A stretch of 64,000 nucleotides of DNA from Patescibacteria group bacterium (GTDB lineage: Bacteria > Patescibacteriota > Minisyncoccia > UBA6257 > GWB1-50-10). How positions within the stretch are numbered: position 1 is the stretch's first letter; every line of letters starts with the position of its first letter. A model generated the notes under the pieces. The model was given only the letters and a program-made list of their open reading frames with translations, was not told the DNA's origin and ran no database searches. The translations under genes and the position numbers were made by a program. The stretch spans positions 423,062-487,061 of the forward strand of contig JANBVK010000001.1 of NCBI GenBank assembly GCA_024239035.1, given 5' to 3'. Below are positions 271 through 35,615 of this stretch, in pieces.

Positions 271-1748
271 CGTAAATCTACTATATTCCCTTCAATAGTT
301 GCCTGCCCCGAGTTACGTCGAGGGAGTTGACCTTTTTTGATGTTACCCTCTTTTTTACCCAGAGGGGATTGTGATGCTTGCGGTTTCTTCTCTATTTGTG
401 TCTTTAATGCTGGTTTCTTTTTTTCTCTTAGTGGTAGAATTTTTTCTGAGGGTTGTGGTGTATTGTTTCGCTCGAGCGTCTCAAGATTAATTACCTCCTT
501 CTCAGGCTTACCAAAAGGGGAAAGCGGCGTTCGACTCTCGCTGTAATGCACCACCCTTTTCTTTTCTTTTTCTTCTTTCACCCGCCGTAGCCTTGGCGAA
601 GGCGGGGCGTCTAACTTCGCTTCCGCGCCGGGTACTTCAATTTTTACCTTAGTGGGCGACGTACCCGGAGTTTTTGGTTTCATAAAACTAAAAGGAAAGT
701 CAAAACCCTTAAATGGTTTCTTATCTTCTTCAACCATTGGTTTTTCTTCGTGAAGGACTAGGGGTTTACCCTGAGTAACATCGAAGGGTTTACCCTCTTC
801 TGTTTTCTGCGTTAATACGCTTCTATGTTCTTCGGTGGGTCCGCGTCTTTCCTCTTCTACTTTTTCTATTCTAATCTTCTGTTCTTTTAACCCTTCTTCG
901 CCGAATTTTTTCAGAGAGATTGTTTTTTCCCCAACAGTTGCTTCTTTAAGTGGTCCTGTAATGGGATCATATACTTTCCTGATGCCATTTCTTAATTGGG
1001 AAAATATCTTTTTACTCAACTCTTGACCAATAGTTGTCGCAATTCGACTATCAATATTTACTGCTTCTTGTATTTCTTTAGTGATATCATCAAGATGAAT
1101 AAAACCCATTAGGACTCGACTGCTGATCATTGCTATTGAACTAATTTTTTCTTCAGAGAAATGATTAGAACTCCCAATTCTAAAAATGTCTTCCGCGTTG
1201 GCGTAAGAGAAAATCTCATTCTTTAAATTCTGAGGCAGCGATTTATATCGTTGATTTACTTGTTTTGGGGGTAGTGCTCCAATAAGTTTAGTTAGACCGA
1301 CGCCTAATTCTTGAGCGAGATTAGCAATTAGAAAAGTATAAAGGGGGGGTCTCTTGGTTTTTAGCCAATTTAATTTTGCTTCTTCGGTTTCTCCTGGTAT
1401 TGCTTCTATAATCAACTTCTGGAACTCTTTTTGGGCTTCTGGATATAAATCAAGGTTTTTATAGATGTTAGCTAAAGCCTCTCCGCTTGCCGTCTCCAGA
1501 ACAGCTTGAGCAATAGTTGGGAGAACGTTGTTTCTCCACTCTTTCTCGCTCAAATTCGCTCGGAGCATCGGAAATCCTTTAATAATACCCACCCAGAAAG
1601 TATTCTCCCACTCTGCCGCCGGAATCGTTTTTAAAGAAGTCCTAAGACCCTCTCCAGCCTTTTGGTAGTTTTTGCTCTGGAGTTCATCCCAAATATCTTC
1701 TTTGAGAATCGGAAGCCAATAAAAGTTTTGAGTATTTATATTGGGCAT
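267..1748 (-). CDS. hypothetical cytoplasmic protein with a K/E/P-rich disordered C-terminus, in the T4SS-like operon
   Basis: 493-aa ORF. No transmembrane segment or signal peptide is visible. The C-terminal half is low-complexity and rich in Lys, Glu and Pro. It sits in a tightly packed minus-strand operon with the VirB6-like and PrgI-like genes. Confidence 0.45.
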   Translation of the reverse strand: MPNINTQNFYWLPILKEDIWDELQSKNYQKAGEGLRTSLKTIPAAEWENTFWVGIIKGFPMLRANLSEKEWRNNVLPTIAQAVLETASGEALANIYKNLDLYPEAQKEFQKLIIEAIPGETEEAKLNWLKTKRPPLYTFLIANLAQELGVGLTKLIGALPPKQVNQRYKSLPQNLKNEIFSYANAEDIFRIGSSNHFSEEKISSIAMISSRVLMGFIHLDDITKEIQEAVNIDSRIATTIGQELSKKIFSQLRNGIRKVYDPITGPLKEATVGEKTISLKKFGEEGLKEQKIRIEKVEEERRGPTEEHRSVLTQKTEEGKPFDVTQGKPLVLHEEKPMVEEDKKPFKGFDFPFSFMKPKTPGTSPTKVKIEVPGAEAKLDAPPSPRLRRVKEEKEKKRVVHYSESRTPLSPFGKPEKEVINLETLERNNTPQPSEKILPLREKKKPALKTQIEKKPQASQSPLGKKEGNIKKGQLPRRNSGQATIEGNIVDLR

Positions 1749-1758
1749 GATTTAGAAT

Positions 1759-3525
1759 TTATGGAGTTCCTCCTCCGCCTGTTCCGCCACCAGCCTGAGC
1801 TTGACGCCGGGCCTCTTCCGCAATCATTTCTTCAACTTGGGCGCCAAGTCCTGCGTCTGATCTCGTTTCTGGATAAGTTTCTCGCATTATTCCAGGTTCT
1901 CTAAAAGGTATTCTTGGGCCATAAGGCGTTCCAGTTTCCCCTCCCCGACCATAGAGAAAACTAAGACGAACTTCTTTTGTTAAAGCGTCCTGAGGTATTG
2001 AGCTTAAAGCCTCAATAGCAGCCTGTCTTACTTGAGCGTTATCACTCCTTGCGTGGAGGCTGAGAGATGCTACAATTTCTACTTTTTCAGGATTTGAGGC
2101 TGTAGTAAACCTTCTCGCATTTTCTTCGATTGACCTACCTCTTACCTCTTTTCTAGCTTGAGCCGTTAATGCTTCTCCAGCTAACCTCGCTTCGCTTAGT
2201 CCCCTTCCAACCTGTCTTAAAGGAGCAGTTAGGAAACGACCAGCTCTCCCGAATACTCTTCTTCCAAGGCCCCCAGTTTGACCTAGGTTTGCTCCAACCC
2301 CTTGTAATCCTGCTGTTAATTTTCTTCCCGTAACACCCCTCAAGGGGTACGTACCAGTCTGTAACGCTTTCCTCCCAGCCCACGCTCTAGTCCCCTTACC
2401 AGCTCTTGAAGCAATACCCATCGCTCCGGCCGAGCCTTTTATACTCATCTGGGTCGCTATCCAAAGCCCGCCAATTAGGATGCCAGCTAACGTTATCATT
2501 TGTGCTCCTTGAACCATAATGTTTTGAAGAGAACCTGAAAAAAACTCTCCTCCCCGAATGCCACCCTGCTCTTTACCTAACTTACCTAATTCCTCAACGC
2601 TTACGAGAGCAAGGTAAGTGAAGAACATGACTGCTGGCGCGAAGAATACCCATTCCATGAATTTACTCCACCATTTTGTGAATTGTCCAGCTAAGTTGGG
2701 AATGACCCAGAAAAGCCATACGATTGGAGATACGATTATAAGAAAAGTTAAGTAGAGATACCGTAACAAAAGCATAAAAGCAAAGGCGAGCAAGACGAAA
2801 GCCGCGATGAGAGTAAAGACAACAGTGAATATAAGACCTGTTATTGAGATAAGTACTGCGGTTCCAATTCCCCCTGTGAGCCCGCCTACTTCTTCTTCCG
2901 GATTTGGTGGAATAGGATCATCGCTCTCAATTAAAAACCGTTGAGGTCCGAATGCACTTGATAGGCTGCTGCTTAGATCTAACCCTAAAGCTCCCCCACC
3001 GGAGGTGACCCTCTCTGCGAAAACATTTGTTAGGACGTGGGAAAAATTAATGAAAACGCCGGCAATTGCGAAACTGAAGTTAACTAGAATAGCGGCAGCA
3101 ATGAGCTTAGGGAGAAGCGCTTTTACCCCATACTGCTCTCTTCGCAGTATGGTTGCAAAAGCTATTACGATAATGAAGAGTACGAAGCCGAGATTGGCAA
3201 TATCGCGGACAATCCTCCATCCAATATGAACAAGAGCATTACTATCATCTAACACCGTAAGATTGAGGCCGAGCATCAAGTTTACAAGGAAACCACTAAG
3301 TACAAAGAGTACTCCCCCAATAAAGTTTAGGAGGAACGCGGTGATTCTGAAGCCGAAGGCGAAGAAATCTGCTACGAGCGTATCACCAATCCCAGCTTGT
3401 GACACCTCAGGTACTAGAAAAAAACCAATTAATAAAAGCAATACAGCTCCTAGAAAGAATTTACTATTAAAGAATCTTGTGACTTGTTTGTTTTTAAGAT
3501 GCATCATGGAGATTGAGAAGGGCAA
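1759..3525 (-). CDS. TrbL/VirB6-like polytopic membrane protein with a Gly/Arg-rich C-terminal tail
   Basis: 588 aa. At least six hydrophobic helices are visible. The C-terminus is a long Gly/Ala/Arg-rich repeat region ending in GGGTGGGGTP. This architecture is typical of TrbL/VirB6 conjugation channel proteins. It is operonic with the PrgI-like gene. Confidence 0.5.
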   Translation of the reverse strand: MPFSISMMHLKNKQVTRFFNSKFFLGAVLLLLIGFFLVPEVSQAGIGDTLVADFFAFGFRITAFLLNFIGGVLFVLSGFLVNLMLGLNLTVLDDSNALVHIGWRIVRDIANLGFVLFIIVIAFATILRREQYGVKALLPKLIAAAILVNFSFAIAGVFINFSHVLTNVFAERVTSGGGALGLDLSSSLSSAFGPQRFLIESDDPIPPNPEEEVGGLTGGIGTAVLISITGLIFTVVFTLIAAFVLLAFAFMLLLRYLYLTFLIIVSPIVWLFWVIPNLAGQFTKWWSKFMEWVFFAPAVMFFTYLALVSVEELGKLGKEQGGIRGGEFFSGSLQNIMVQGAQMITLAGILIGGLWIATQMSIKGSAGAMGIASRAGKGTRAWAGRKALQTGTYPLRGVTGRKLTAGLQGVGANLGQTGGLGRRVFGRAGRFLTAPLRQVGRGLSEARLAGEALTAQARKEVRGRSIEENARRFTTASNPEKVEIVASLSLHARSDNAQVRQAAIEALSSIPQDALTKEVRLSFLYGRGGETGTPYGPRIPFREPGIMRETYPETRSDAGLGAQVEEMIAEEARRQAQAGGGTGGGGTP

Positions 3526-5009
3526 GCATACGTCACATTCAAAACATCCTCACATTGAACAAGCTCTTCTTTTATTCGCGTTAAGTCTGCCTGAACCCGC
3601 GTCTTATCAGCCTCTATGCCTGTTTGCATGCTCTGTATTATGCTGGCGAATTGCCGGGCGATGATTCTTGATGCTCCTGCTCTGAGTACTCCCTCAGCAT
3701 TGTCAAGAAGGGTCGATGAAGCATTTAGGGAGTTAGATAATTCAGTAATTTCTACAAGGGTTGGATTTTGGGTGCACGTTAAGCCGCGGCCAGTCTGGCA
3801 ATTAATTAGCATTTGAGTTGTCGATGAGAGTTCTGTATTCAAGTTAAGAGTTTCTTCTATGGTGGCCCGGGTAGCTCCGATTTCAGCGAGAGCTACCTGG
3901 GATTCTTGTTCCGCTTGTGTGTCTTCGATTGTGTTTTGGAGATCACTTTGTTGTTGTTGATACTCTATGCATGCTGCTTGGGCAGAGGAGCTCAATCGTG
4001 GGTCATTACAGTCAGTTTGTGGGGTGTTTCCTGAAGGCCCTAGATTTTGGACTCCTTTCACCCCCTCTGCAATGAGCCGGTTAATGGACGCGTCAAATAT
4101 GGCACCGATGTAGGCTGTGAGCTCTTGAGCATTTACTAGATAATCTATATCAGCATATAGAGATCTTTCTAAACCTTCAGCAATAGCAGTGCCCGGCGTG
4201 GTAACTCTATCTTGGTGGCAAACCCATTCAATATTATTAATACCCGTTACAAGTACGGGTGGCGGTTGGGACGGGTCAGGGTAGGGTCGGATGAAGCTGT
4301 CGCTGTTAAATGGATACAACTTAGAAACGGCCTTGCCGCTATCATCGGTACCTCTAGCTTCCCATTCAAGACACTGTTTTGTGCTCAAAAACCCCCTCCC
4401 CGAATTTATTTCTTGTCTTAGTGCGTCTGTTTTTTGGGCTTCTCGTCTCTCGACCTCGCTCTGTGCAAGGATTTCAATGCCCCACCTGTTATTTTGAGGT
4501 CTTAGAAGTTCTTGATAACCGATCCAGCCGCCGCTCGTAAAACTATCACGAAACCGCTCGACGTTACCGACAATATCGTCAAGCGTGCAGCTCACCCGTT
4601 GGGAAAAGACCGGCCGTTCAAGCTGAAACTGGATTCTAACGGGGCTAATACCTCTGCATAGATCGCCTAGTCCTATTTCCCGGGCTACATCACCAACTGC
4701 TGCCTGGCCTGCGTCTTCTAAGAAACCACCGAAGTCAGTTACAAATTTAGGATCACCGTCACCTTGAATCCAACCGATAGTTTCATCAACCAGCTGATCA
4801 AGCAATCGTTTTTTAAGCGCCTCGAGAGCCGACTTTAATGCAAGCTCTGCGGCTGATTTTGTAACATCCCATATCCAACCTACGACACTCTCCGGGTTTA
4901 TGGTAATATCAGCGATGCCAAGGAACGCTTTTGCTCGGAACGGATAAGTGGTTCCTGTAACGAGCAGAACGCTTATGAGCAAAGCAGAGATAATTTTTTT
5001 TGTTCTCAT
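3504..5009 (-). CDS. secreted protein of unknown function (signal peptide present)
   Basis: 501 aa. The N-terminus MRTKKIISALLISVLLVTGTTYPFRAKA looks like a SPase I signal peptide. Several Cys pairs are present. The coding region overlaps the VirB6-like gene by 22 nt. Confidence 0.45.
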   Translation of the reverse strand: MRTKKIISALLISVLLVTGTTYPFRAKAFLGIADITINPESVVGWIWDVTKSAAELALKSALEALKKRLLDQLVDETIGWIQGDGDPKFVTDFGGFLEDAGQAAVGDVAREIGLGDLCRGISPVRIQFQLERPVFSQRVSCTLDDIVGNVERFRDSFTSGGWIGYQELLRPQNNRWGIEILAQSEVERREAQKTDALRQEINSGRGFLSTKQCLEWEARGTDDSGKAVSKLYPFNSDSFIRPYPDPSQPPPVLVTGINNIEWVCHQDRVTTPGTAIAEGLERSLYADIDYLVNAQELTAYIGAIFDASINRLIAEGVKGVQNLGPSGNTPQTDCNDPRLSSSAQAACIEYQQQQSDLQNTIEDTQAEQESQVALAEIGATRATIEETLNLNTELSSTTQMLINCQTGRGLTCTQNPTLVEITELSNSLNASSTLLDNAEGVLRAGASRIIARQFASIIQSMQTGIEADKTRVQADLTRIKEELVQCEDVLNVTYACPSQSP

Positions 5010-5015
5010 ATTTGA

Positions 5016-5822
5016 CTAAGAAGTTAATTCTTCATAGCGTTGAATTAAAATAGATTGTAAATCGAGATCTTCTTGGATAATTTCGGGTAATGTTTGGATC
5101 ACTACATATGTTTTGAGCGGATCAGTTTGTATGTTCAAGACAGCCTGGTACATGAGCAATTTCTTGTACCACAAGTTTGTGTATTGGAGGTGGTATTCTT
5201 GCCACTGCGGAGGAGTCTCAAGTTCAAGCAAGCCGTTTATATAATCCGAGATATGACTGGTGAGATAATGTATAGTTTGTGGATTATTTTCTTTAAAAAA
5301 CTCCTCCAAAGCGATATTAATATCTTTCTTGAACCCGCTAAAATTTTCTCTTAAAAGCGAATCGATCGCCTCCATATAAGTGATTTGATTTTCAGACGAA
5401 TTATCGCCTGAGATTCTAATATCTTTAAGGTTGAATTTAGGAAAATCAAAATCCTGTACAATTTTTTCTTGGAGTACTTGTTGTAAGTCAGGAGTTGCGA
5501 TGTTGAGATTGCGTTCCTCAACTCGTCCACTGCCTCGCTCTACGTTTTTTAAGAGCTCTTTGGCGTAAGCCTGAGCGACCAACTCAGTGAGGTTATCAGT
5601 TCCCTGGTTTTCACTTCCTCCCCCAAGACCTCCGTATACTCCGAAAATATTAGCTTGAGATTGAGGTGTTGATTTAAATTGGAGGCTTGGATTGGTATTC
5701 TCCTTAAATTTTGATACGGTCAAAAAATCACCGAAAGGCTTAGAGTCGCTATTGGTGACGAGTAAGGAAACTCCTATTCCAAACAGAATGACAGTAAAAG
5801 CGATGATTTTTATTTTACTCAT
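5016..5822 (-). CDS. N-terminally membrane-anchored hypothetical protein, first gene of the T4SS-like operon
   Basis: 268 aa. A single N-terminal hydrophobic helix (IIAFTVILFGIGVSLLV) is followed by a soluble domain. Confidence 0.4.
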   Translation of the reverse strand: MSKIKIIAFTVILFGIGVSLLVTNSDSKPFGDFLTVSKFKENTNPSLQFKSTPQSQANIFGVYGGLGGGSENQGTDNLTELVAQAYAKELLKNVERGSGRVEERNLNIATPDLQQVLQEKIVQDFDFPKFNLKDIRISGDNSSENQITYMEAIDSLLRENFSGFKKDINIALEEFFKENNPQTIHYLTSHISDYINGLLELETPPQWQEYHLQYTNLWYKKLLMYQAVLNIQTDPLKTYVVIQTLPEIIQEDLDLQSILIQRYEELTS

Positions 5823-6678: not shown

Positions 6679-7488
6679 CTAACCAATAAGGTGTTGGCTG
6701 AGTTTTTGTATTTTACTCACGTCTAAACATTGCGGCCGGTCATTAGGGTTAACACGAATCTCCTCAAGTTTTTTAATTAACTCAATTTTATCAAGTGAGA
6801 AACCTTGGGCTAGGTTATTTAAAATCGTCTTCCTCGGTTGCTTAAAGAGAGCTTTAATTAGTTTGTAGTACCTTTCCGTATTTTTTGGTTCATATTTTCT
6901 AGTTCTTAATCGTATAATTGCCGAATCAACTTTCGGTTTTGGTTCAAAATCTTCTTTTGGAATGTAGTCAATAATTTCCGGGTTCGCCCAAAACTGAACA
7001 CTTGCAGCAAGAAGATTCATTTTTGGGGGTTTGGCACATAGTCGTTCGGCCACTTCTTTTTGAAGAGTTAAAACAATAATAGTAGTTAGTAACTGGTAAT
7101 TAGTAATTAGTTCACCCAAAGTCCTTAAAAGACGCCCGGTTATGTAATAGGGAATGTTGCCTACAATTTTGTAATTAGTAACTGGTAACTTGTAATTAGC
7201 AATCAATTTAGAAAGTTCTTTTAGGGCATCTCCGTGAATAAAAGTTATATTTTCTGATTTCCGATTACTACTTGCTAATTCTTCATAAAGATTTTTGTCT
7301 TTTTCTATCGCGACGATTCTAGATTTTAGACTCTGTGTTCTAGACATTAGTTCTTTTGTAAGCTCTCCTCGCCCCGATCCGACCTCAATAATGATGTTGT
7401 TGTCTTCAATATCCAGCGCATCAATGATTTCCTTGATTTTCTCTTTGTTTATAAGGGAATATTGGCCTAATCTCTTATTTGAATACAT
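6679..7488 (-). CDS. rsmA: 16S rRNA (adenine1518/1519-N6)-dimethyltransferase RsmA/KsgA
   Basis: SAM-binding motif EVGSGRGELT is present. The NIPY motif (VGNIPYYITG) and the QKEVAERL helix match KsgA. Confidence 0.85.
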   Translation of the reverse strand: MYSNKRLGQYSLINKEKIKEIIDALDIEDNNIIIEVGSGRGELTKELMSRTQSLKSRIVAIEKDKNLYEELASSNRKSENITFIHGDALKELSKLIANYKLPVTNYKIVGNIPYYITGRLLRTLGELITNYQLLTTIIVLTLQKEVAERLCAKPPKMNLLAASVQFWANPEIIDYIPKEDFEPKPKVDSAIIRLRTRKYEPKNTERYYKLIKALFKQPRKTILNNLAQGFSLDKIELIKKLEEIRVNPNDRPQCLDVSKIQKLSQHLIG

Positions 7489-11575: not shown

Positions 11576-12906
11576 TTAATGCCTACTTGCTGCCGATTTT
11601 AGTTTTTTAACCTCTCTTTTAAAAGTCAGTTTATCACTGGACCCAACGAAGAAACGCACGAGCGACTGAGTATTGGATGGGCGAACCATAAAGAACCAGT
11701 CATCAAAATCAAATGTTATTCCATCAATGAATCCTACCCGGCGGGCTTTTCGCTCATAGATAGTTTTTATCTTCTTAATAAATTCTTTCGGGTTCGTGTT
11801 CTGAATATCAAACTGTTCGTAGTAAAGTTTAGGCAGGAAATCATAGAAATCGGCTAAGGAGTACGGTACTTTTGATAAAATGTCGAGTACTTTTGCAACT
11901 GCGAGTATCGCAGAATCAGAGTAAGAAAAGTCTTTAAAAAAGTAATGTCCAGAGTATTCTGCTCCAACCGTTGCCTTTCTCTTTTTCATAATTTCTTTAA
12001 CGAAGCGAGTTCCTACTGGAGATGGAAACGTTTTTTTTCTTAAGAGTTGAAGGTGTTCTAAGGATTTGAATGAGAAAATTTCAGCGACAAATGGTGGTTT
12101 CTCATCCAGGAACAGAAGATATGCTATAAAATATGCGGGTATCTTCCTACCACGATTATCGATGAAAAAAACCCGGTCGCCGTCCCCGTCAAATATGACG
12201 CCCAGGTCGGCCCGCCTTTTTAGAACTTGTTTCTGAAGCTCCACTCTTGCGCCCGGTATTAGGGGATTGGGTTGATGACCCGGGAAAGTTCCGTCGGATT
12301 TGTAATTTATATAGTGGGGCGTAATTAGTGGTTGATTTTGAAATAATTTTTTTAAAATAGGCCCGACCGCTCCGTTTGAACAGTCAAAAACTATCTTAAT
12401 CGGTTTTTTGATATTCATAAAGTCACGGAGATACCTGACGTAAGCGTTTATATAAGTATCATTCATAGCCATTTTTGAACAATTCTCAATACTTTATCTC
12501 CGCCGATCATTTCCGCATTTTTACCAACTACTTTTAGACCGTTCCATTCTTTCGGATTGTGAGAGGCAGTTATTATAACCCCGTAATCAGCGCGTAAATG
12601 CTTTACGAGAAAGTAGAACATCGGTGTTGTAGTAAGCCCGGCTTTAACGATTTTGGTTCTTCCTACATCCTCAAGTCCTAGAATAGCTGCCCTATAGAGA
12701 CTTGGTGAACTTAGGCGAACATCATATGCCACTACGGCGGTGGATTTCTTGCTTCTAGTTCTCGATTTGAAATAATCTCCTAGCGAGCGTGCGATTGTGT
12801 AGACTGCCACCTCGTTTATTTGTTTTGGGTATTTCCCTCTAATATCGTAAGCTTTGAAAATTTCCTTTGGCATCACATTCTCAAAATCTTTATAAGTTTT
12901 AGTCAT
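11576..12906 (-). pseudogene. phosphoglucomutase/phosphomannomutase (alpha-D-phosphohexomutase) interrupted by a frameshift at 12463..12472
   Basis: The N-terminal part (12463..12906) carries the active-site Ser motif TASHNP. The C-terminal part (11576..12472) carries the metal-binding FDGDGDR motif. The two ORFs overlap by 10 nt at an A5 homopolymer (coding strand GTTCAAAAATGG). Adding one A fuses them in frame into a protein of about 445 aa. Confidence 0.75.
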
Positions 12907-13013
12907 AGATAGATTTATCTTAATGCTTTGTGAGGCGGCAGTCGATACACCTTGATAGATCCAGCGGGATTGAAACCAGCGGGATTTTGAGCTTAAATGA
13001 AAGCATATCATTC

Positions 13014-21286: not shown

Positions 21287-23770
21287 ATGGTTAATAATAA
21301 ACCTAAAAATACGGAGAAGACGCGGGCCCGTGAAATTACCGAGGAATTGCGGGAGTCGTATTTAGATTACGCAATGTCCGTTATTGTCGCGCGAGCCCTA
21401 CCTGACGTGCGGGATGGTTTGAAACCGGTTCAGCGGCGTATTCTCTGGGCGATGTGGGATAGTAGTTTAACCCACAGTGCCAAATTTAGAAAATCGGCTA
21501 ATGTAGTCGGAGAAGTTTTGGGTAAATATCATCCTCATGGCGATACGGCGCTCTACGATGCTCTCGCACGCATGGCCCAAGATTTCTCTCTCCGTTACCC
21601 GCTAATTGATGGCCAGGGTAATTGGGGGTCGGTTGATGGTGATGCACCGGCAGCTATGCGATACACCGAAGCCCGCCTTTCTCGCATTGCCGAAGAACTC
21701 CTGGTTGATATTGATAAAGAAACCGTTGATTGGCAGCCAAATTATGACAATTCCCGCCTTGAGCCGAAATTTCTTCCTGCCAAACTGCCTAACCTTTTGT
21801 TAAACGGAACGGTGGGCATCGCTGTTGGTATGGCAACTTCTATCCCGCCGCATAACCTTCTCGAGATAGTTGACGCCCTTGTTTATTTAAATAATCACCC
21901 TGACGCAGGCATTAAAGATTTAATGAAATTTATCCCCGGACCTGATTTTCCTACCGGTGGTGTTATCTACGATCGCCGCTCGATTGAGGAAGCGTACACT
22001 ACCGGCCGGGGTTCGATTACCACTCGAGCGGTAGCGAATATTGAAGAGCGAAAAAGCGGCAGTTATCAAATAGTCATTACTGAAATTCCCTATCAAGTGA
22101 ATAAAGCGAACTTAATTATCGTGATTGCAAACCTGGTTCAGGATAAGAGGATAAACGGTATTCGGGATGTTCGCGATGAATCTGATCGGGAGGGGTTGCG
22201 GATAGTGATTGAATTAAAGAATGACAGTTCTCCCCAGAAAATTTTGAACCAACTCTACCAATATTCTGAATTGCAAAAAAATTTCTACTTCAACATGATC
22301 GCCTTAGTAGATGGTCTTCAACCCCAAACCCTTTCCTTAAAAGACGTTCTTAGCTACTACCTTGATCACCGTAGGATTGTTGTTCGCCGTCGCGCGGAAT
22401 TTGATCTAAAAAAAGCTGAAGAGCGAGCTCACATATTAACCGGGCTTGTTAGGGCGCTAAAGGCGATTGATAAAATAATTGCCACAATCAAGAAGTCGAA
22501 AGACAGAGAGACGGCTCAGAAAAATCTGGTCAAGAATTTTAAATTAACCGTCATCCAGGCTAATGCGATTTTGGAAATGAAACTTCAGGCTCTAGCTGCT
22601 CTTGAGCGGAAGAGGATTGAAGACGAACTCAAAAAGAAACAGGAGCTTATAAAAGAACTAAGACTTATTTTGAAAGGTACCAAGAGAATAGCCGGTATTG
22701 TCGAGGATGAGTTTTTAGAATTGAAAAAGAATTTCCCGGAATCGCGTAGAACGAAATTAGTGGCGACAGGCCTTAAAGAATTTCGCGAAGAAGACTTGAT
22801 CCCGGAGGAAGAAATTATTATCACTTTAACTCAAGGAGGTTACATTAAGAGAATGTCTCCTACCTCTTTCCGCGCTCAAAAAAGGGGCGGTAAAGGATTA
22901 ATCGGTTTTGAGTTGAGAGAAGAAGACGTTATTAGCCAGTTTATATCAGCCAGTACGCACGACAACATCCTTTTCTTTACTGACCGAGGGAAAGTTTTCC
23001 AAACTAAAGTGTATGAAATTCCGACTGCGTCGCGAACGGCTAAAGGTAAGTCCATTTATAACTTCTTGGAAATCCCGACGAACGAAAAAGTAAGCGCGGT
23101 TGTCACCTATGGGAATAAATCGCAAAGCCGAGGTGTTAGCGCTCCGCGGTATTTAGTAATGGCGACTACCAAGGGATTAATTAAAAAAACGCCGCTTGAA
23201 GACTTTAAAAATGTTCGGCGAACGGGGATTATCGCAATTAGGTTAAGGTCAGACGATCTCCTAAAGTGGGTGAAGTTATCCTCGGGTGATGACCAGATTG
23301 TTTTGGTCACTGCTCTTGGTCAGGCAATTCGCTTTAAAGAGAAGGAAGTGAGGTGGATGAGTCGGGCGGCGGCCGGAGTTCAGGCAATTCGCCTAAAGAA
23401 AGGAGATTCTGTCACCAGTCTTGGTATAATAAAAGCGGTAGAACCTAATAAGCCAAAAGCCAAAAGCCACAAGCTTCTAGCAGTGATGGCAAATGGTTTT
23501 GCCAAACAGACCCCTCTTAAAGAATATAAATTACAGAGAAGGGGCGGCTCAGGCATCAAGACCGCTAAGGTAACGGATAAAACCGGTCTTGTTATTGCGG
23601 CTAAGGTATTATTAGACGAAGAAATGGAAGAAATTCTGGTGTTTTCTTCAAAGGGTCAGGCTCTCCGGACAAAAATTAAAAATATACGTACAGTCAGTAG
23701 ATCCACTCAAGGAGTGAGAATTATGAATTTGAAGGCCGGAGACGAACTTGTAGGTATTGTCTGCTTATAA
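21287..23770 (+). CDS. gyrA: DNA gyrase subunit A
   Basis: [25 protein letters not shown] is present. The active-site Tyr region is visible. The QRDR-like segment [12 protein letters not shown] is present. Repeated C-terminal beta-pinwheel blades are visible. Confidence 0.85.
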
Positions 23771-23781
23771 GGGGAAAAGAT

Positions 23782-25083
23782 ATGAATCTAACCAAACCTC
23801 AACTCATTATTATTGGAGCAGTCGGCCTCGTGGTTCTTGTTCTTGTTTTAGTCTTTACTGGTATCTTGCCGGGTCTTAAGAATGAAAAGGGTAAAATTAG
23901 AGCTAATTTAGAATTTTGGGGAGTGTTTGATACCCTCCCGGATTATGAAACAGCTGTTGGAAACTTCAAGAAAATATATCCAGATGTTACGGTAAACTAC
24001 CGAGGTTTTAGCAATGTCAAGGAATACGAGACAACTCTACTGGATAGTCTCGCCGCGGGTAAAGGACCCGATATTTTTATGATTAGAAACAGGTCCTTAC
24101 CCAGGGAGATAAATAAAATTGTATCGGTTCCTCCGACCAAACTTTCTCTTATCCAGCTCCGTAATCTCTTTCCTCAAGTGGTGGAAGCTGACTTCGCTCC
24201 TCAGGGAGCTATTTATGCCCTCCCTCTTTCTTTAGATACTCTGGCTTTGATCTACAATCAGGATTTCTTTAACCAAGCAGCTATTATTGCTCCTCCCGAG
24301 ACGTGGGAGGATTTTGAGAGTCTAATTCCTAAACTTATCAAACGGGACCCGGAAGAAAACATTACTCGGGCAGCAGCGGCAATAGGTGGTTCTCTTAAGA
24401 CCATTGACCGGGCAGGGGACATTTTGAGCATTTTGATGCTTCAAACCGGTGCTAAGATGGTAAGTGATGATTTTGGGGCGGCTACCTTTGCCTCTAACGA
24501 AGGATTGAATGCTTTAAACTTCTACGTTAAATTCGCTGACCCCGAATCACAGGCCTACACTTGGGACGATTCTTTCCCCGGCGCCCTTGACGCTTTCAGT
24601 GAGGAGTTTGTGGTAATGATTTTTGACTACGCCTCCGCCATCCCCGAGATTAAATCAAAAAATCCTTTCATAAATTTTGCCGTTAGCCCTCTCCCTCAAC
24701 CGGAGTCAGCCGATAGGTCAGTTGCATACCCCGACTACTGGGGATATGCCGTCTCCCGCCAAGCCGGAAGGTATCAGAATATAGCTTGGGACTTTGTTAT
24801 CGCGCTTACAACCAAAACCAATAATGCCAGAGGTTATTTTAACAAAACCCGGAAACCGCCGGCGCTAAGAACACTCATTAACGAACGCCTGAACGATCCG
24901 GATTTGGACGTTTTTGTAAGACAAGCGTTAGTTGCCCGTTCGTGGCCCCAGATTGATCCCGATGGCATAGAACAAATTTTTTCCGGGATGATTGAATCGG
25001 TAGTTACCGGAGGTTCGTCCGTGCGGGACGCTATAGAGCAAGCCGAGGAGAGCGTGACGAGGCTTATGCAGAGGCGTTTGTAG
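23782..25083 (+). CDS. extracellular solute-binding protein (ABC transporter substrate-binding family 1-like), N-terminal membrane anchor
   Basis: N-terminal transmembrane segment, then LEFWGVFDTLPDYETAVGNFKKIYPDVTV, typical of sugar-type substrate-binding proteins. 433 aa. Confidence 0.5.
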   Translation: MNLTKPQLIIIGAVGLVVLVLVLVFTGILPGLKNEKGKIRANLEFWGVFDTLPDYETAVGNFKKIYPDVTVNYRGFSNVKEYETTLLDSLAAGKGPDIFMIRNRSLPREINKIVSVPPTKLSLIQLRNLFPQVVEADFAPQGAIYALPLSLDTLALIYNQDFFNQAAIIAPPETWEDFESLIPKLIKRDPEENITRAAAAIGGSLKTIDRAGDILSILMLQTGAKMVSDDFGAATFASNEGLNALNFYVKFADPESQAYTWDDSFPGALDAFSEEFVVMIFDYASAIPEIKSKNPFINFAVSPLPQPESADRSVAYPDYWGYAVSRQAGRYQNIAWDFVIALTTKTNNARGYFNKTRKPPALRTLINERLNDPDLDVFVRQALVARSWPQIDPDGIEQIFSGMIESVVTGGSSVRDAIEQAEESVTRLMQRRL

Positions 25084-25088
25084 AGAAC

Positions 25089-25499
25089 ATGAAATACATA
25101 TTGATAATATTTATTACGCTCTTTATTGTCTTCCCTCTTTTTCCAGGAGTTGCTTCTGCTCAACTGAACATTTGGGAAGACACAGGACAGCCGGGAAGAG
25201 CGACGTGTAATATAGACGGACCTTGTACTTTTTGTGACGCGCTCAAAGTTACTTCAAACGTTGTCCAACTCCTTTTCCAAGTAGCAATACCGATTGCGGT
25301 CGCGATGATTATATATGGTGCCCTCCGCTTAATGTTTGCCGGCGGATCTCAAGAACGGATAACCCAGAGCAGGAAGATTATGACAAGCGCTGTAATTGGT
25401 TTGATTATCGCCCTTAGCGCCTGGATTATTGTAAATACCCTGCTTCACGTTTTAACCGGTAATCCCAGTTTCCCCTGGAATGAGATTACATGTTCTTGA
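25089..25499 (+). CDS. T4SS pilin-like protein (VirB2/TrbC-type topology), paralog 1
   Basis: Signal peptide ending ..PGVASA|Q. Short Cys-containing segment (CNIDGPCTFCD). Two hydrophobic helices follow (VAIPIAVAMIIYGALRLMFAGG ... AVIGLIIALSAWIIV). 136 aa. Confidence 0.5.
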   Translation: MKYILIIFITLFIVFPLFPGVASAQLNIWEDTGQPGRATCNIDGPCTFCDALKVTSNVVQLLFQVAIPIAVAMIIYGALRLMFAGGSQERITQSRKIMTSAVIGLIIALSAWIIVNTLLHVLTGNPSFPWNEITCS

Positions 25500-25502
25500 A
25501 AA

Positions 25503-25925
25503 GTGAGCTGTTATAATAATTATATGAAACTTTTTGGATTATTTATTGTTTCTCTTGTTGTCTTCGCTCTTGTTTTTTCCGCACCGCTTGCTTTTGCGCA
25601 GGTAGGTACTGGTGGTCCTACCGTTGGAACAGGGAGTGGAGGTTGTGGAGAAGGATTATTACCAAATCCTCTAGGAGGAGAAACATGCACCATTCCCGAA
25701 TTATTAGAGAGAATCGTTGGTTTTCTCGTCCTTATTGCCTCGCCGATTGCAGCGGGAATGATTATTTATGGTGCATTTCAGATACTTTTTGCCGCCGGTG
25801 ACCCAGAAAAGTTTAAGATAGGAAAACGCACAATTCTTTACACAATTGTTGCCTATGCTATAATATTCATCGGTTGGGGAATTGTAAGTATTATTGAAGA
25901 CGTATTAGGAGGAGGAGGATTATAA
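25503..25925 (+). CDS. T4SS pilin-like protein, paralog 2
   Basis: Signal peptide ..PLAFA|Q. Cys-containing Gly-rich segment. Two hydrophobic helices with the shared motif IASPIAAGMIIYGAFQILFAAG. Confidence 0.5.
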   Translation: MSCYNNYMKLFGLFIVSLVVFALVFSAPLAFAQVGTGGPTVGTGSGGCGEGLLPNPLGGETCTIPELLERIVGFLVLIASPIAAGMIIYGAFQILFAAGDPEKFKIGKRTILYTIVAYAIIFIGWGIVSIIEDVLGGGGL

Positions 25926-25974
25926 AGAGCCCCAACTCGATATGGTATAATAATCCCAGAAAAGGTCGAAGTTT

Positions 25975-26349
25975 TTGTTCACGACTAGTTATATGTCTAT
26001 TACGTCTATTAAAAAAATCGCTTTGTTTCTACCATTAATTATAATGGTAGCCCTACCTTTAGTAGGATTTGCCCAACCAGCAGAAGCTCCCATAACGGAT
26101 ATTGCAGGAGTTGAGAGCTTGCTAAACAGGATTCTTAACATTGTTTTCGTCATCTTCTTTATTATTGCCGTACTCTTTATTATTTTAGCTGCGTTCGGTT
26201 ATTTAACCGCTGGCGGGGATGATGAAAAGATAAAATCAGCAAAACAAAAGTTAATCTATGCAATTGTGGCTATTGTGGTTGCGCTCTTGGCTACGGGAAT
26301 AGATAATATTGTAGAAGGTATTTTGGAGGGAGGAGAACTTACCCGATAA
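25975..26349 (+). CDS. T4SS pilin-like protein, paralog 3
   Basis: Signal peptide ..VGFA|QP. Two hydrophobic helices (IVFVIFFIIAVLFIILAAFGYLTAGG ... LIYAIVAIVVALLATG). Same architecture as the two upstream paralogs. Confidence 0.5.
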   Translation: MFTTSYMSITSIKKIALFLPLIIMVALPLVGFAQPAEAPITDIAGVESLLNRILNIVFVIFFIIAVLFIILAAFGYLTAGGDDEKIKSAKQKLIYAIVAIVVALLATGIDNIVEGILEGGELTR

Positions 26350-26373
26350 GAGAGTTAGGAATTAATACTTAAA

Positions 26374-26408
26374 ACCCGCCAAGCATTCTGCTTGGCGGGT
26401 TTTGGTTT
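26374..26408 (+). terminator. rho-independent terminator of the pilin-like gene triplet
   Basis: Hairpin acccgccaagc-attc-tgcttggcgggt followed by a T-run (TTTGGTTT). Confidence 0.7.
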
Positions 26409-28519: not shown

Positions 28520-28744
28520 TTAAACCCAACCGCTTCCGCCGCACGCGCTGCACCGTCCATTGCCACCGCAACCACTACACTTTCCACCGCCTCGGCAATG
28601 CTGACAAGTCTCCTTCGGCATCCAAGGCTTGTGGATATTACCTTCCCCCCTGCAGTTTATGCAGATGCCTTTTCCATAACACTTGAAGCATTTTCCTTTT
28701 CCTCCTCTGCACAATTGGCACTCTTTTTTTTCGTGCTGAGACAT
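28520..28744 (-). CDS. 74-aa cysteine-rich miniprotein with six DnaJ-type CxxCxGxG zinc-finger repeats
   Basis: Sequence MSQHEKKECQLCRGGKGKCFKCYGKGICINCRGEGN...CQHCRGGGKCSGCGGNGRCSACGGSG, giving six CxxC(x)G(x)G units. It has its own copy of the promoter cassette and its own terminator. Confidence 0.6.
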   Translation of the reverse strand: MSQHEKKECQLCRGGKGKCFKCYGKGICINCRGEGNIHKPWMPKETCQHCRGGGKCSGCGGNGRCSACGGSGWV

Positions 28745-29981: not shown

Positions 29982-30464
29982 ATGAACCTGCTTTTTAATA
30001 GTTCTTTTGGATTAAAACTCGATGTCGCCCAGGTGGTTCGGGAAGTCGTGCGTTTCATGAAGGCTGATCCGAAAAGACAGTACAAAATTATTATTGGCAC
30101 GGACTCAGAACGGTTAGCCAGTAAAGACGCCGATTTCGTGACGGCGGTAGTGGTTCATCGTTTAGGAAACGGCGGCAGGTATTTTTGGCGGCGAATTAAA
30201 TTAGGAAAGTTTCATACAATCCGCGACCGGATTATCAAAGAAGTTATGCTTTCTCTCGAGACGGCACATCTCGTATTAGCGGAGCTAAAAAAAGACCCCC
30301 TCTCTGATAACTGGGGTTTTGAAATCCACGCTGATATTGGCGAGAACGGTGAGACTAAGGTACTTATCCAGGAAGTGGTAGGTATGATCAGGGCAAATAA
30401 TTTTGAGGTAAAGACTAAGCCCGATAGTTACGCCGCGACCAAGGTGGCAGACAGGCATGTATGA
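29982..30464 (+). CDS. RNase H-like fold protein (YkuK/DUF458-like)
   Basis: 160 aa with KIIIGTDSER..FVTAVVVHR. This resembles the DUF458 RNase H-like family from memory. The stop overlaps the next start (ATGA). Confidence 0.35.
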   Translation: MNLLFNSSFGLKLDVAQVVREVVRFMKADPKRQYKIIIGTDSERLASKDADFVTAVVVHRLGNGGRYFWRRIKLGKFHTIRDRIIKEVMLSLETAHLVLAELKKDPLSDNWGFEIHADIGENGETKVLIQEVVGMIRANNFEVKTKPDSYAATKVADRHV

Positions 30465-31033
30465 ACGACAAGATAGTTTTTGACATTGAAACAAAAAATT
30501 TATTTTCTGACGTTGGCGGTGAAGAAAATATAGATAAACTTGACGTTTCAGTAGTCGGCGTGTACTCGTATGATAAGGACGAGTATGTTTGTTTTGATGA
30601 GCAGGAACTTGATAAGCTCGGCGAGATGCTTAAAAATGCCGGGCTTTTGATAGGGTTTTGGAGCAAGCATTTTGATGTGCCGGTTTTGGAGAAATATTTT
30701 AAATTTAACTTATCCGCCATTCCTCATTTCGATATTTTAGAAGAAATTCAGAAGGAATTTGGCAGACGGATTAGCTTAGGATTACTGGCAGAAGCTAATT
30801 TGAATATTGGGAAAACCGGCCATGGTCTGGAAGCAATTGAAATGTACCGAAAGGGAGAAATTGAAAAATTAAAAAGTTATTGTCTCCAAGACGTGAAAGT
30901 AACAAAAGAAATCTTTGACCTTATCAAGAATCAGGGGTATCTTTGGATACCGCAAAGGGACGTCCCGCAGATGATTAAATTACCCTTAACTTACAAAGAA
31001 GAAATTTCTCCCCAGAATCAATTATTTGGATAG
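30461..31033 (+). CDS. DEDDy-type 3'-5' exonuclease (PolB-exonuclease-like)
   Basis: Exo I motif FDIETKN, Exo II motif GFWSKHFDVPVL, and Exo III motif YCLQDV (YxxxD) appear in order. Confidence 0.5.
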   Translation: MNDKIVFDIETKNLFSDVGGEENIDKLDVSVVGVYSYDKDEYVCFDEQELDKLGEMLKNAGLLIGFWSKHFDVPVLEKYFKFNLSAIPHFDILEEIQKEFGRRISLGLLAEANLNIGKTGHGLEAIEMYRKGEIEKLKSYCLQDVKVTKEIFDLIKNQGYLWIPQRDVPQMIKLPLTYKEEISPQNQLFG

Positions 31034-31106
31034 TCAAATTTCCCTGCCTGCCGGCAGGTAAGTACTACTGGGGTTGACCTCAAAACCGGAAATGCGTAAC
31101 CTATAA

Positions 31107-31430
31107 GTGTATAAACCAATGAATCCTCGAAAGAACAAAACATTAGTTACCGTCGTCGTGCTTTTTATGGTGTTCGGGTTGGTGATGGCCTATATTCCTT
31201 TCCTGTCTCCGCGGTCACTTGCGCCAGGAACCAGCGATCAGTTTTCACCGCCACAACCTCATGCGGCAACATTGGTATCACCACCAGTAGAAGTAGTGGA
31301 GGAAGTTGAGAAAGTTCAGGACTCAACTTCTTCAGAAAAAGTATCTCCACCGGAGAGTTTCTTAGGCTTAGAAGAAGAGAGTGAATTACTTGGTGAACTT
31401 GACAGTCTTTTGGATGATCTAGATCAGTAA
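31107..31430 (+). CDS. small membrane protein with an acidic C-terminal tail
   Basis: 107 aa. One transmembrane helix (LVTVVVLFMVFGLVMAYIPF). C-terminus EEESELLGELDSLLDDLDQ. Confidence 0.4.
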   Translation: MYKPMNPRKNKTLVTVVVLFMVFGLVMAYIPFLSPRSLAPGTSDQFSPPQPHAATLVSPPVEVVEEVEKVQDSTSSEKVSPPESFLGLEEESELLGELDSLLDDLDQ

Positions 31431-31458
31431 TTTATATTTTGTGAAAGTGTTTAATTAT

Positions 31459-31489
31459 TACCCGGACATTAGTCCGGGTAATTTTTTTT
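31459..31489 (+). terminator. rho-independent terminator
   Basis: Hairpin tacccggac-atta-gtccgggta followed by a T8 run. Confidence 0.7.
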
Positions 31490-31603
31490 GCAAGTATGAT
31501 GATATTGATATAATTTATGATTTTTATTAGAATATGCTGCAGGCACTTTAAAAAAATAGTTTAGTAATCACAATTCCGCTTCTTGGTTCTAGGAGGTGAG
31601 TTC

Positions 31604-31744
31604 ATGGGTCAGGGACTAGCTTTGGGAGACGGGGCGTTCATTAAAGATCCGGTGTTGGAGTGGCACAAGTGGCGACCCATCCTCGGTCCACACCTTAGAG
31701 TGGGAATGAGTACGGTTATCAGTACCGATGAGGAGATTTATTAG
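31604..31744 (+). CDS. possible 46-aa micro-protein with a strong Shine-Dalgarno sequence
   Basis: AGGAGGTG sits 6 nt upstream of the ATG. The translation is MGQGLALGDGAFIKDPVLEWHKWRPILGPHLRVGMSTVISTDEEIY. It overlaps the start of the 31728 ORF. Confidence 0.25.
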   Translation: MGQGLALGDGAFIKDPVLEWHKWRPILGPHLRVGMSTVISTDEEIY

Positions 31745-32009
31745 ATATCACCTTTCAATCGCGTTACCGGGAGAGGTAATCGGAGATGACGGCAAGCCGA
31801 CTTTTGTCCCGCTCTACATCAAGTTGGTAGATTCAGGGAATAGGGAATGCACCTACATCCGAGTGGATGCCCAAATGAACTTCGAAGAGGCTGATTCTAA
31901 AAAACCCAGTTCCTTCGTTGTCGCGGCTCGCCGGGTTGAGGAATGTACTGTCCCGCCGATTCTAAAACGAGCGATGCCAAGGAGAGCGCCGCCAAGACGT
32001 ATGAGGTGA
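31728..32009 (+). CDS. hypothetical small protein with an Arg-rich C-terminus
   Basis: 93-aa ORF ending RAMPRRAPPRRMR. A hairpin terminator at 32030..32060 follows directly. The start is uncertain. Confidence 0.25.
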   Translation: MRRFIRYHLSIALPGEVIGDDGKPTFVPLYIKLVDSGNRECTYIRVDAQMNFEEADSKKPSSFVVAARRVEECTVPPILKRAMPRRAPPRRMR

Positions 32010-32029
32010 ATTACCCAGTTTTAAGATTT

Positions 32030-32072
32030 AGAGCCCCGTGCTTATTACAGGCGGGGCTCTTCATGTTTTCTT
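32030..32072 (+). terminator. hairpin terminator
   Basis: agagccccg-tgcttattacag-gcggggctct, then a T-rich tract. Confidence 0.5.
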
Positions 32073-32144
32073 ATCGGCATTTACACAGCCGCTTAATTTG
32101 GTTATATTTAGAAAGTTAAAAGCCCCGATAGGCTTATAAAATAG

Positions 32145-33992: not shown

Positions 33993-34064
33993 CGGGCATG
34001 TAGCTCAATGGCAGAGCGCCAAGCTTATACCTTGGTGGTTCCTGGTTCGAATCCAGGCATGCCC
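33993..34064 (+). tRNA. tRNA-Ile(TAT) (anticodon UAU, an AUA decoder)
   Basis: Acceptor stem gggcatg/catgccc. D-arm gctc-aatggca-gagc. Anticodon stem ccaag/cttgg with loop ctTATac. T-arm cctgg-ttcgaat-ccagg. Confidence 0.65.
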
Positions 34065-34084
34065 ACCCTAATAAAATAATTAGA

Positions 34085-34301: not shown

Positions 34302-35195
34302 TTATTTTCTTCTGCGAGCGTGAAACGCTTCGTGTATGTCCCGGAGGTCTTTATTGGTGAGATGGGTGTAAACTTGAGTAGTTGAGATGTTCGCGTGGCC
34401 TAGAAGTTCCTGCACCGAGCGAAGGTCGGCACCGTTTATAAGGAGATCGGTTGCGAATGAATGGCGAAGCTGGTGAACATGCACCTTTTTGGGAATACCG
34501 GCTTGTCGTCCTCGAAGGTCTACTGCTCTTTGCACTGCCCGTGGTGTAATGCGGTCGAGCGCACCACCACTTCTTGAGAGACTTATAAATAATGCTTCAT
34601 TAGCATCTTCTCGTTTGTCTAAATATTTCTTGAGCGCTCGCTTTGTACCAACGGATAAAAAAACAACCCTTAACTTGTCTCCCTTACCGCGTACGGAAAT
34701 TTCCCCGCGACTCATATCTATTTTACGGTTTAAACTACAGAGTTCTGAGAGACGAAGACCGGTTGAAAATAAAGTTTCTAAAATTGCTCTGTCGCGAAGT
34801 GAACGTAGATCATTGCCCTTTGGAGCTTGGAGCAATCGCTCAAGCTCGTTGTAATCCAACGTTTCGATGTCCCTCCTCACAACTTTTGGAAGCTCAATAG
34901 TTTCAGGCGGTAATACCTTAATACCGCGTTTCACAAGATATTTTAAGAAGTTTCTGAGAGCAATTACGTAGTAACTTTGAGTGATTTTTTTAAGTTTACC
35001 CCGGCCGAGCAATATGCGGAAATCTCGAATCACTTCTTGAGTGATTTCTTTAGGAGAACGAATGTGGGATTTTTCTATAAATACACGAAGATATTGTTCG
35101 TAATTCTCCCGTGTTTTTGGGGAGCGGTTTTTTTCAATTTCTAGGTAATCAAGATAATCTTTTAATAATTTTTCTATTTCAGACATTAATTTCAT
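34302..35195 (-). CDS. tyrosine recombinase XerC/XerD family
   Basis: The C-terminal catalytic region HQLRHSFATDLLINGADLRSVQELLGHANISTTQVYTHL carries the R..HxxR..Y residues. The probable start is MKLMSEIEKLL (35195) rather than the 35399 extension. It lies 40 bp from the tRNA-Val 3' end. Confidence 0.8.
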   Translation of the reverse strand: MKLMSEIEKLLKDYLDYLEIEKNRSPKTRENYEQYLRVFIEKSHIRSPKEITQEVIRDFRILLGRGKLKKITQSYYVIALRNFLKYLVKRGIKVLPPETIELPKVVRRDIETLDYNELERLLQAPKGNDLRSLRDRAILETLFSTGLRLSELCSLNRKIDMSRGEISVRGKGDKLRVVFLSVGTKRALKKYLDKREDANEALFISLSRSGGALDRITPRAVQRAVDLRGRQAGIPKKVHVHQLRHSFATDLLINGADLRSVQELLGHANISTTQVYTHLTNKDLRDIHEAFHARRRK

Positions 35196-35348
35196 TATAT
35201 CAGAAGTGTCGTAAAAGGAGGATTGTTGCGTCAAAAATTCTTTTGACGCAAAATCCCGCGGAGATCTTACAACGCCTTGAAAAATGCCATAAAATCTCCA
35301 TCTTTGACATTTTTTCGCTTTTATAGTAGCCTTGTATTTAACATCTAA

Positions 35349-35615
35349 ATGCTCTCTAAAAGAAAGAAACAGTTTGCTATTAAGGAATACCAAAAACATA
35401 AGACTGATACGGGATCCGCGGAAGTACAGGTTGGGCTTTTGACGAAGCGGATTAAAGAATTAGCGGATCATCTAAAAAAGCACCCGAAAGATCACCATTC
35501 TCGACGGGGACTTTTGATAATGGTGGGTAAACGTAGAAAGTTTTTACAATACCTTCGTCGGGAAAATGAAAAAGTTTACGATAAACTGGCGAAGAAACTA
35601 AAATTAGAGGTTTAA
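35349..35615 (+). CDS. rpsO: 30S ribosomal protein S15
   Basis: 88 aa. [48 protein letters not shown] matches S15. Confidence 0.85.

Follow-up and report, generated by a model that had tools for sequence, protein, structure and literature searches.

What do three consecutive genes for small membrane proteins contribute to the cell of a Patescibacteria bacterium, and do they encode exchangeable versions of one surface protein or distinct parts of one apparatus? The question is raised by positions 25089 to 26349 of the 64,000-nucleotide stretch analysed here (contig JANBVK010000001.1, positions 423,062 to 487,061, assembly GCA_024239035.1; hereafter the window), which derives from a metagenome-assembled genome (MAG) whose nearest named relatives are Ca. 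Jorgensenbacteria and Paceibacterota MAGs. In the original prediction, made from the DNA letters, the three genes were taken as paralogous pilins of a type IV secretion system (T4SS), serving either heteromeric pilus assembly or surface variation. At a probability of about 70%, the trio is read here as a set of specialised, anciently diverged VirB2/TrbC-like subunits of a chromosomal monoderm-type T4SS in a Patescibacteria bacterium close to Ca. Jorgensenbacteria.

The three proteins belong to the T4SS (VirB2/TrbC-like) pilin family. Against the Pfam profile PF18895 (T4SS_pilin, gathering score 26.6), genes 1, 2 and 3 obtain 48.7, 40.7 and 44.6 bits, respectively (E-values of 8e-13, 2.5e-10 and 1.6e-11), so that all pass, and the existing annotation of the source contig agrees with this assignment. 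The related profile PF04956 (TrbC/VirB2, gathering score 27.9) is passed by gene 3 with 31.2 bits, while gene 1 reaches 17.9 bits and gene 2 gives no match; genes 1 and 2 are tied to gene 3 only via PF18895 and via profile-profile comparison (hhalign), in which the pilin-1 and pilin-3 families match with a probability of 97.7% and an E-value of 1.5e-12. Because of the Pfam E-values and this profile-profile match, homology among the three is not a matter of chance. All three also match NF045849 (Mbov_0395 pilin-like conjugal transfer protein), at 25.4, 23.7 and 37.0 bits, below its cutoff of 40. In GenBank, pilin 1 and pilin 2 (MCP6720142.1) are already named 'pilin' and pilin 3 (MCP6720143.1) 'TrbC/VirB2 family protein'. 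Together with the PrgI/VirB3, VirB6-like and VirB4 proteins encoded in the same genome, these matches and names bear out the predicted T4SS-pilin identity.

All three open reading frames (ORFs) lie on the forward strand, one after the other, as predicted. Pilin 1 (25089-25499, 136 aa) has the length first proposed for it; for the other two, 140 and 124 aa had been proposed by taking the longest ORFs, and these are corrected to 133 aa for pilin 2 (25524-25925) and 118 aa for pilin 3 (25993-26349). The choice of ATG 25524 and ATG 25993 as starts follows from the lengths of the orthologues, from stops in frame in relatives and from the GenBank calls. For gene 2, GTG 25503 was rejected since orthologue lengths and the 133-aa GenBank call favour ATG 25524; for gene 3, TTG 25975 was rejected since the closest homologues and the GenBank protein are 118 aa long and relatives carry stops upstream, the gene-3 ATG being directly preceded by an in-frame stop in four orthologous loci. 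Pilins 1 and 2 are separated by 24 nt and pilins 2 and 3 by 67 nt. As predicted, the trio shares one terminator: a single strong hairpin 3' of gene 3, at 26369-26405 and followed by a U-tract up to 26411 (forward strand), with a 17-bp stem, a ΔG of -27.1 kcal/mol and a z-score of -5.8 versus shuffled sequences. This intrinsic terminator closes a transcription unit that comprises gyrA, a solute-binding protein (SBP) gene and the pilins.

The 67-nt gap holds a candidate pilin-3 promoter or leader (25943-25968, forward strand), in which an extended -10-like element, TGGTATAAT (25943-25951), is followed by the 9-mer AAAAGGTCG (25960-25968). The 9-mer is unique within the window, and in the orthologous loci it is invariant and occurs once per locus, 25-39 nt upstream of the pilin-3 ATG, with the -10-like element 7-12 nt ahead of it; a separate promoter for gene 3 is therefore possible. 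The 9-mer was also considered as the Shine-Dalgarno site of an upstream alternative start, which was rejected on a start-codon check of the orthologous loci. A promoter-like site inside pilin 2 (25837-25864, 11 of 12 positions) was set aside, as it lies in conserved coding sequence (LYT...AII) where coding constraint is inseparable from any other.

With respect to protein architecture, the predicted arrangement of a signal peptide, an exposed segment and a two-helix hairpin with a basic loop is recovered in each pilin. Kyte-Doolittle profiles give three hydrophobic segments per protein, namely an N-terminal signal-like segment and two long helices. The signal-like segments have small residues at -3 and -1 and then Gln (VASA|Q, AFA|Q and GFA|Q in pilins 1, 2 and 3), with Pro or Gly 3-6 residues ahead of each putative cleavage site; the sites were placed by a rule-based A/G-x-A|Q reading of the residues. 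A polar segment of 26, 33 and 14 residues, respectively, follows the cleavage site, the interhelix loop is 12-14 residues long and net basic in all three, and a short tail closes each protein. In pilin 1, the signal peptide covers residues 1-24 and the helices approximately 51-83 and 98-122, and an AlphaFold2 model built with 23 homologues gives a confident helical hairpin (helices 48-82 and 88-123, pLDDT 82). Its exposed segment carries the conserved sequence NIWxxTG..TCN..GPCTFCD, and its tail, conserved as well, reads FPWNEITC. Pilin 2 has a Gly-rich exposed segment and the tail GGGGL, and of the trio, pilin 3 comes closest to a canonical TrbC/VirB2-like protein. The shared helix motifs are present as well, as MIIYGA..(F/L)FA(G/A)G in pilins 1 and 2 and as the counterpart FIILAAFGYLTAGG in pilin 3, even though pairwise identity within the trio is 26-27%. 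The Cys-containing N-segments reported for two of the proteins were also found, but that description was incomplete: pilin 1 carries three Cys in its N-segment (C40, C46 and C49) and a fourth at its C-terminus (C135), and pilin 2 carries two.

Whether such paralogs are exchangeable or specialised can be judged from their relatives. The gyrA-SBP-pilin×3 block recurs in five other contigs (L003, L004, L005, L007 and L008) and in the GTDB genomes L011-L013, the latter found in a scan with a 9-sequence pilin alignment. The pilins fall into three orthologue groups that keep the same order in at least nine contigs, with 56-61% identity within an orthologue group versus 29-34% between groups. In the most distant contigs (L017-L019) the pilins are long (336-609 aa) or form an array of seven or more. 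Region-by-region identities over six orthologous trios differ per pilin. In pilin 1 the N-segment (66%; motif NIWxGTG..GG.TCN..GPCxFCD) is as conserved as the helices (66-68%), and the tail reads FPWNxITC. In pilin 2 the N-segment is 50% and the helices are 53-62% identical; this segment varies in length from 13 to 33 residues around a conserved LP(N/D)PLGG, and its Cys pair is shared by the window genome and the closest relative alone. Pilin 3 has 37% identity in the N-segment, 64-65% in the helices and 27% in the tail. The ratio of nonsynonymous to synonymous substitution rates (ω), computed versus the closest relative (L003), is 0.09, 0.14 and 0.22 for mature pilins 1, 2 and 3, with 0.04-0.10 in the helices and 0.19-0.65 in the N-segments; the highest value, 0.65 in the pilin-3 N-segment, is still below 1. 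All three genes are thus under purifying selection, and there was no signal of diversifying selection, i.e., no ω above 1, in this comparison. The less constrained exposed parts are as expected for surface-exposed termini. Stable orthologue groups together with purifying selection favour three specialised, non-redundant subunits over a variation system; these may act in a heteromeric manner or as a major subunit plus minor ones, and their assembly into a heteromeric pilus is putative.

The Cys residues of pilin 1 follow a pattern of their own. The number of Cys in the mature protein is even in all 23 pilin-1 homologues, 20 of which have three in the N-segment and one in the C-tail, and the single homologue without the C-tail Cys (P0021) also lacks C49. 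The even counts and the joint loss of C49 and the C-tail Cys fit two disulfides, one of them running from the N-segment to the C-terminus. Based on these residue patterns, the exposed N-segment and the C-tail of pilin 1 are probably joined by a predicted disulfide, for which C49-C135 is the most likely pairing and C40-C46 the second pair. The T-pilin is cyclised head to tail; closure of pilin 1 by a disulfide would be reminiscent of this, albeit chemically different.

Genes for a matching machine are located on the same 729-kb scaffold. At the left end of the window, a previously unannotated operon (267-5822, reverse strand) forms the beginning of a T4SS cluster that runs leftward past the window, in the order of two proteins without family match, a VirB6-like protein, a 493-aa protein, PrgI/VirB3, a TraC-like protein, VirB4, four ORFs, yidC, dnaA and dnaN. 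The first two are secreted or membrane proteins of 501 and 268 aa (3504-5822, reverse strand). The VirB6/TrbL-like polytopic membrane protein (1759-3525, reverse strand) has a weak TrbL_3 match in the existing annotation, and no Pfam match at E<=0.01 in a direct scan. The 493-aa protein (267-1748, reverse strand), for which no family match was found, lies between it and PrgI, a VirB3-like protein whose gene is cut by the window edge, with the 5' part inside the window at 1-270 on the reverse strand (L009:11479-11985; PF12666, 34.7 bits versus a gathering score of 27). The VirB4 ATPase scores 101 bits with P-loop_TraG and 369 bits, versus a cutoff of 325, with NF045971, the CD1110-family VirB4. 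The VirB4 function is divided between two ORFs (L009:11998-14412, forward strand), one for a TraC-like N-terminal piece of 215 aa and the other for the CD1110-family ATPase of 584 aa. The trio lies 21.5 kb from the VirB6-like gene, in line with the predicted separation of about 20 kb from the PrgI/VirB6-like operon, and approximately 26-28 kb from virB4. The T4SS of Paceibacteria was described as monoderm-type and origin-proximal with KsgA nearby (PMC12102498), and the cluster, with a KsgA-type RrnaAD dimethylase at 6679-7488 in the window, matches this arrangement. Genes for a VirD4 coupling protein, a relaxase or an ABC transporter were looked for in the window and not found, the FtsK encoded there being of the housekeeping type that has a gamma domain, and no VirB7, VirB9 or VirB10 was seen, i.e., there is no outer-membrane core complex.

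Lineage-specific hidden Markov models run on all window ORFs of at least 45 aa detected no further pilin gene in the window. The same models match, with an E-value of 3.5e-10, a 318-aa ORF three genes after virB4 (MCP6720113.1, 'hypothetical protein'; L009:15641-16597, forward strand), about 4-5 kb to the left of window position 1. This ORF obtains 16.7 bits with Pfam T4SS_pilin, below the threshold, and combines a signal peptide and a T4SS_pilin hairpin with a Cys-rich C-terminal domain of about 200 aa that ends in GLKxC. It has 123 homologues of 270-550 aa, many with PF18895 and named 'pilin', in which the C-terminal domain is Cys-rich or, in some, contains Peptidase_M23 or other domains. 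The AlphaFold2 model of the long pilin is mediocre (pLDDT 69) and its C-terminal domain gave no fold match. Pilins with such big C-terminal domains argue that the C-terminus of the hairpin is extracellular.

How the trio might work can be proposed from VirB2 and TraA biology, which provides the basis by analogy for insertion, cleavage and polymerisation. The precursors would be inserted via Sec/YidC, and signal peptidase I would cut after A/G-x-A, often leaving an N-terminal Gln. Mature hairpins would then form a pool in the cytoplasmic membrane, the basic loop facing the cytoplasm and the two termini the exterior. From this pool the VirB4 ATPase, on a VirB3/VirB6 platform, would extract the subunits and stack them to build a tubular filament, or an extension of the channel, in contact with the host cell. 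Most likely, labour would be divided such that pilin 3 is the bulk subunit while pilins 1 and 2 are accessory or co-polymerising; pilin 3 is the best bulk-subunit candidate because it is the most canonical, has a promoter-like leader and is located directly before the terminator. By analogy with Southlakia epibionticum, the apparatus probably serves an epibiotic lifestyle rather than conjugation.

Several explanations compete with this proposal. One holds that the genes encode unrelated small membrane proteins, holin- or toxin-like, that share a two-helix topology. Helical hairpins are structurally generic and the trio gives weak, sub-threshold matches to many membrane families, but three T4SS_pilin matches and one TrbC match exceed curated thresholds, the cognate T4SS is encoded in the genome, and signal-peptide features are present. 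As no holin or phage family was matched (Hol_Tox at E 0.86 only; among PHROGs no annotated family, only unknown-function matches at E>=0.019), a holin or phage origin was rejected; the genomic context likewise consists of housekeeping genes, not phage lysis genes. The profile scores effectively refute this explanation, and its probability is negligible. The second half of the original prediction, in which variable N-segments serve surface variation, is not supported. As suggested for Bartonella and Anaplasma VirB2, the three proteins could be interchangeable alternative major pilins for surface or antigenic variation or host-strain matching. This would suit the pilin-3 N-segment (37% identity versus 64% in the helices, ω 0.65 versus 0.04), the variable length of the pilin-2 N-segment, the separate promoter-like leader of gene 3 and the host-range versatility proposed for such arrays (PMC12102498). 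It is hard to reconcile with three orthologue groups in a constant order, with ω below 1 throughout and with an exposed segment of pilin 1 that is conserved like the helices, so that hypervariability of the N-segment across relatives was not borne out. Scans for ORFs, promoters and terminators, and families, which did not include a dedicated repeat search, revealed no repeats, invertible elements or recombinase beside the array. Variation of this kind is therefore considered very unlikely.

More weight is due to a third explanation, in which the proteins are genuine T4SS_pilin members that serve as short subunits of a T4SS channel or stalk, embedded in the membrane or spanning the wall, much like the pilin-like conjugal transfer proteins of mycoplasma integrative and conjugative elements (ICEs), and never form an extended pilus. 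Gram-positive T4SSs are generally without pili (PMC10633639, PMC12857230), the VirB4 is of the monoderm CD1110 family, and the sub-threshold NF045849 matches (25-37 bits versus 40) point in the same direction. On the other hand, the conserved exposed N- and C-segments and the disulfide-type Cys set suggest a structured extracellular surface, long pilins bear extracellular domains of at least 200 aa on the same hairpin, and the pilin profiles score above the mycoplasma family. Since no T4SS pilus has been visualised in the phylum, a channel or stalk role is still given some weight, albeit as an unlikely outcome. The reading of the trio as specialised pilus subunits has to be held against the same fact and several others. 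According to the literature, a T4SS pilus has so far been observed neither in Patescibacteria nor in other monoderms, which makes filament formation an inference. Among solved structures, profile searches with the families of pilins 1 and 3 retrieved no pilin, and in fold searches the hairpin was indistinguishable from hundreds of other helical hairpins. Signal-peptide cleavage is judged by a residue rule, and the case for pilin 3 as the best candidate for the major subunit consists of a promoter-like sequence and gene position. Moreover, the array is not adjacent to virB4, and the 74 kb examined showed neither a coupling protein nor a relaxase. All of these weigh against the preferred reading.

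Upstream of the trio, the transcription unit contains gyrA (21287-23770, forward strand) and, 11 nt after it, the SBP gene (23782-25083, forward strand), which ends 5 nt ahead of pilin 1. It encodes a family-1 (carbohydrate-type) solute-binding protein with an N-terminal membrane anchor (PF13416, PF01547) and gives weak GanS/MalE-type matches only among NCBIfam families; it is an orphan in that the window showed no gene for an ABC permease or ATPase. The SBP gene is directly upstream of the first pilin in 14 of 14 distinct contigs, including distant ones with different pilin sets, and in some relatives the two genes overlap, the SBP stop codon with the start of pilin 1. A linkage of SBP and pilin array is not mentioned in PMC12102498. 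It may be functional or may simply be conserved synteny. A bolder joint reading, to which only a rather low probability is assigned, would have the membrane-anchored SBP cooperate with the T4SS filament, either as an adhesin for glycans on the host surface or in capturing nutrients derived from the host, pilin 1 being disulfide-stapled and 'pseudo-cyclic', and the whole forming a heteromeric monoderm pilus with accessory subunits that include the Cys-rich long pilin. If true, pilin 1 would be the monoderm analogue of the head-to-tail cyclised T-pilin. Past the terminator, two convergent genes encode a 286-aa membrane protein and an SPFH protein.

Compared with known systems, the trio is most similar to the arrays already described for the same phylum. 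Quiñonero-Coronel et al. (2025; PMC12102498) reported 441 arrays from 383 Patescibacteria assemblies, with 2-11 VirB2-like pilin genes per array, a mean identity of 25% and T4SS genes near dnaA, and the trio falls within their definition of an array (at least two pilin genes, in tandem or one gene apart, about 25% identity). Epibiotic growth of S. epibionticum on its host requires both the T4SS and the pilin array (PMC10633639), and neither a coupling protein nor a relaxase can be recognised in that species, which suggests a non-conjugative role (PMC10633639, PMC12857230). Like these arrays, including that of six pilins in S. epibionticum ML1, the trio combines the same Pfam family, phylum, tandem order and approximately 25% identity with a chromosomal monoderm-type (MPF-FATA-like) T4SS beside dnaA and no relaxase nearby. 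Unlike the S. epibionticum array, which lies inside the T4SS cluster, the trio is located 21-28 kb away from the machine genes within the gyrA-SBP-pilin×3 unit, and unlike in other Patescibacteria arrays, pilin 1 belongs to a narrow sub-family of Jorgensenbacteria and Paceibacterota MAGs with a conserved 3+1 Cys set. Overall, the trio is already known: it carries pilin labels in GenBank, divergent arrays of this kind were published in 2023-2025, and it fits the account in PMC12102498 in every respect. As the genes are annotated and such arrays catalogued, the locus adds no new kind of element. What novelty remains is modest and in part speculative; it concerns the SBP linkage, the pilin-1 Cys pattern and the evidence for stable specialisation.

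Resemblance extends to better characterised pilins. VirB2 is cleaved at Ala|Gln, as proposed for the trio, and with VirB2 of Agrobacterium, TrbC of RP4 and TraA of F the trio shares a long leader, an Ala-x-Ala site, two helices, a basic loop and, as predicted for the trio, termini outside and dependence on a VirB4 ATPase; gene 3 passes the TrbC/VirB2 threshold. It differs from these in its monoderm host without outer-membrane core complex and in genes 1 and 2 being below the TrbC threshold; furthermore, there is no sign of the head-to-tail cyclisation of VirB2/TrbC, for which pilin 1 may use the predicted disulfide instead. In place of the one major pilin of Proteobacteria there are three co-conserved paralogues, and a tblastn search with pilin 3 found no match, and thus no plasmid relative, among 72,556 plasmids. 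Bartonella and Anaplasma phagocytophilum, which are also host-dependent bacteria, carry divergent VirB2 copies in chromosomal tandem as well, but those copies are thought to vary for immune evasion, whereas the groups described here are stable and under purifying selection. The Mbov_0395 family of mycoplasma ICEs likewise comprises a small two-helix protein with a monoderm VirB4-type system and is weakly matched by all three pilins; the scores are below its cutoff, however, and the context here is chromosomal and housekeeping, not that of an ICE.

Elsewhere in the window, several unrelated features were observed. Leucyl-tRNA synthetase (57147-60032, forward strand, 961 aa) contains an inserted NUDIX domain (residues 419-511, 37.5 bits) between the editing domain and the best-matching class-I catalytic stretch. 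Phosphoglucomutase/phosphomannomutase (11576-13011, reverse strand) is divided over two overlapping ORFs, with domain I at 12463-13011 and domains II-IV at 11576-12472, for which a frameshift, a pseudogene or a fault in the assembly could account. At 33994-34067 (forward strand) the window encodes a tRNA-Ile whose anticodon is TAT (UAU), an uncommon one, since most bacteria use a lysidine-modified CAU tRNA-Ile instead. Its neighbours are tRNA-Val and a tyrosine recombinase gene (34302-35399), which is kept at the same place in L005 and is thus probably a housekeeping Xer-type gene and not a prophage integrase. A 74-aa ORF (28520-28744, reverse strand), in a stretch with few genes that is flanked by the SPFH gene and tRNA-Leu, consists almost entirely of CxxCxGxG-type repeats resembling a DnaJ zinc finger and has no family match. 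Lastly, the approximately 1.1 kb at 31034-32144, from an RNase_H_2-family gene (30461-31033) to ftsH, holds short low-confidence ORFs only and gave no Rfam match; relatives carry different small genes at this position.

Whether a monoderm T4SS is able to build a pilus at all and which cargo the essential epibiont T4SS carries are open questions in the field (PMC10633639, PMC12857230). The probable pilin-1 disulfide, the SBP linkage and the long pilins with extracellular domains are details that may be useful for structural work on such a filament. For the MAGs related to Jorgensenbacteria, the three pilin lineages, kept in a fixed order under purifying selection, argue for distinct, non-redundant subunits.

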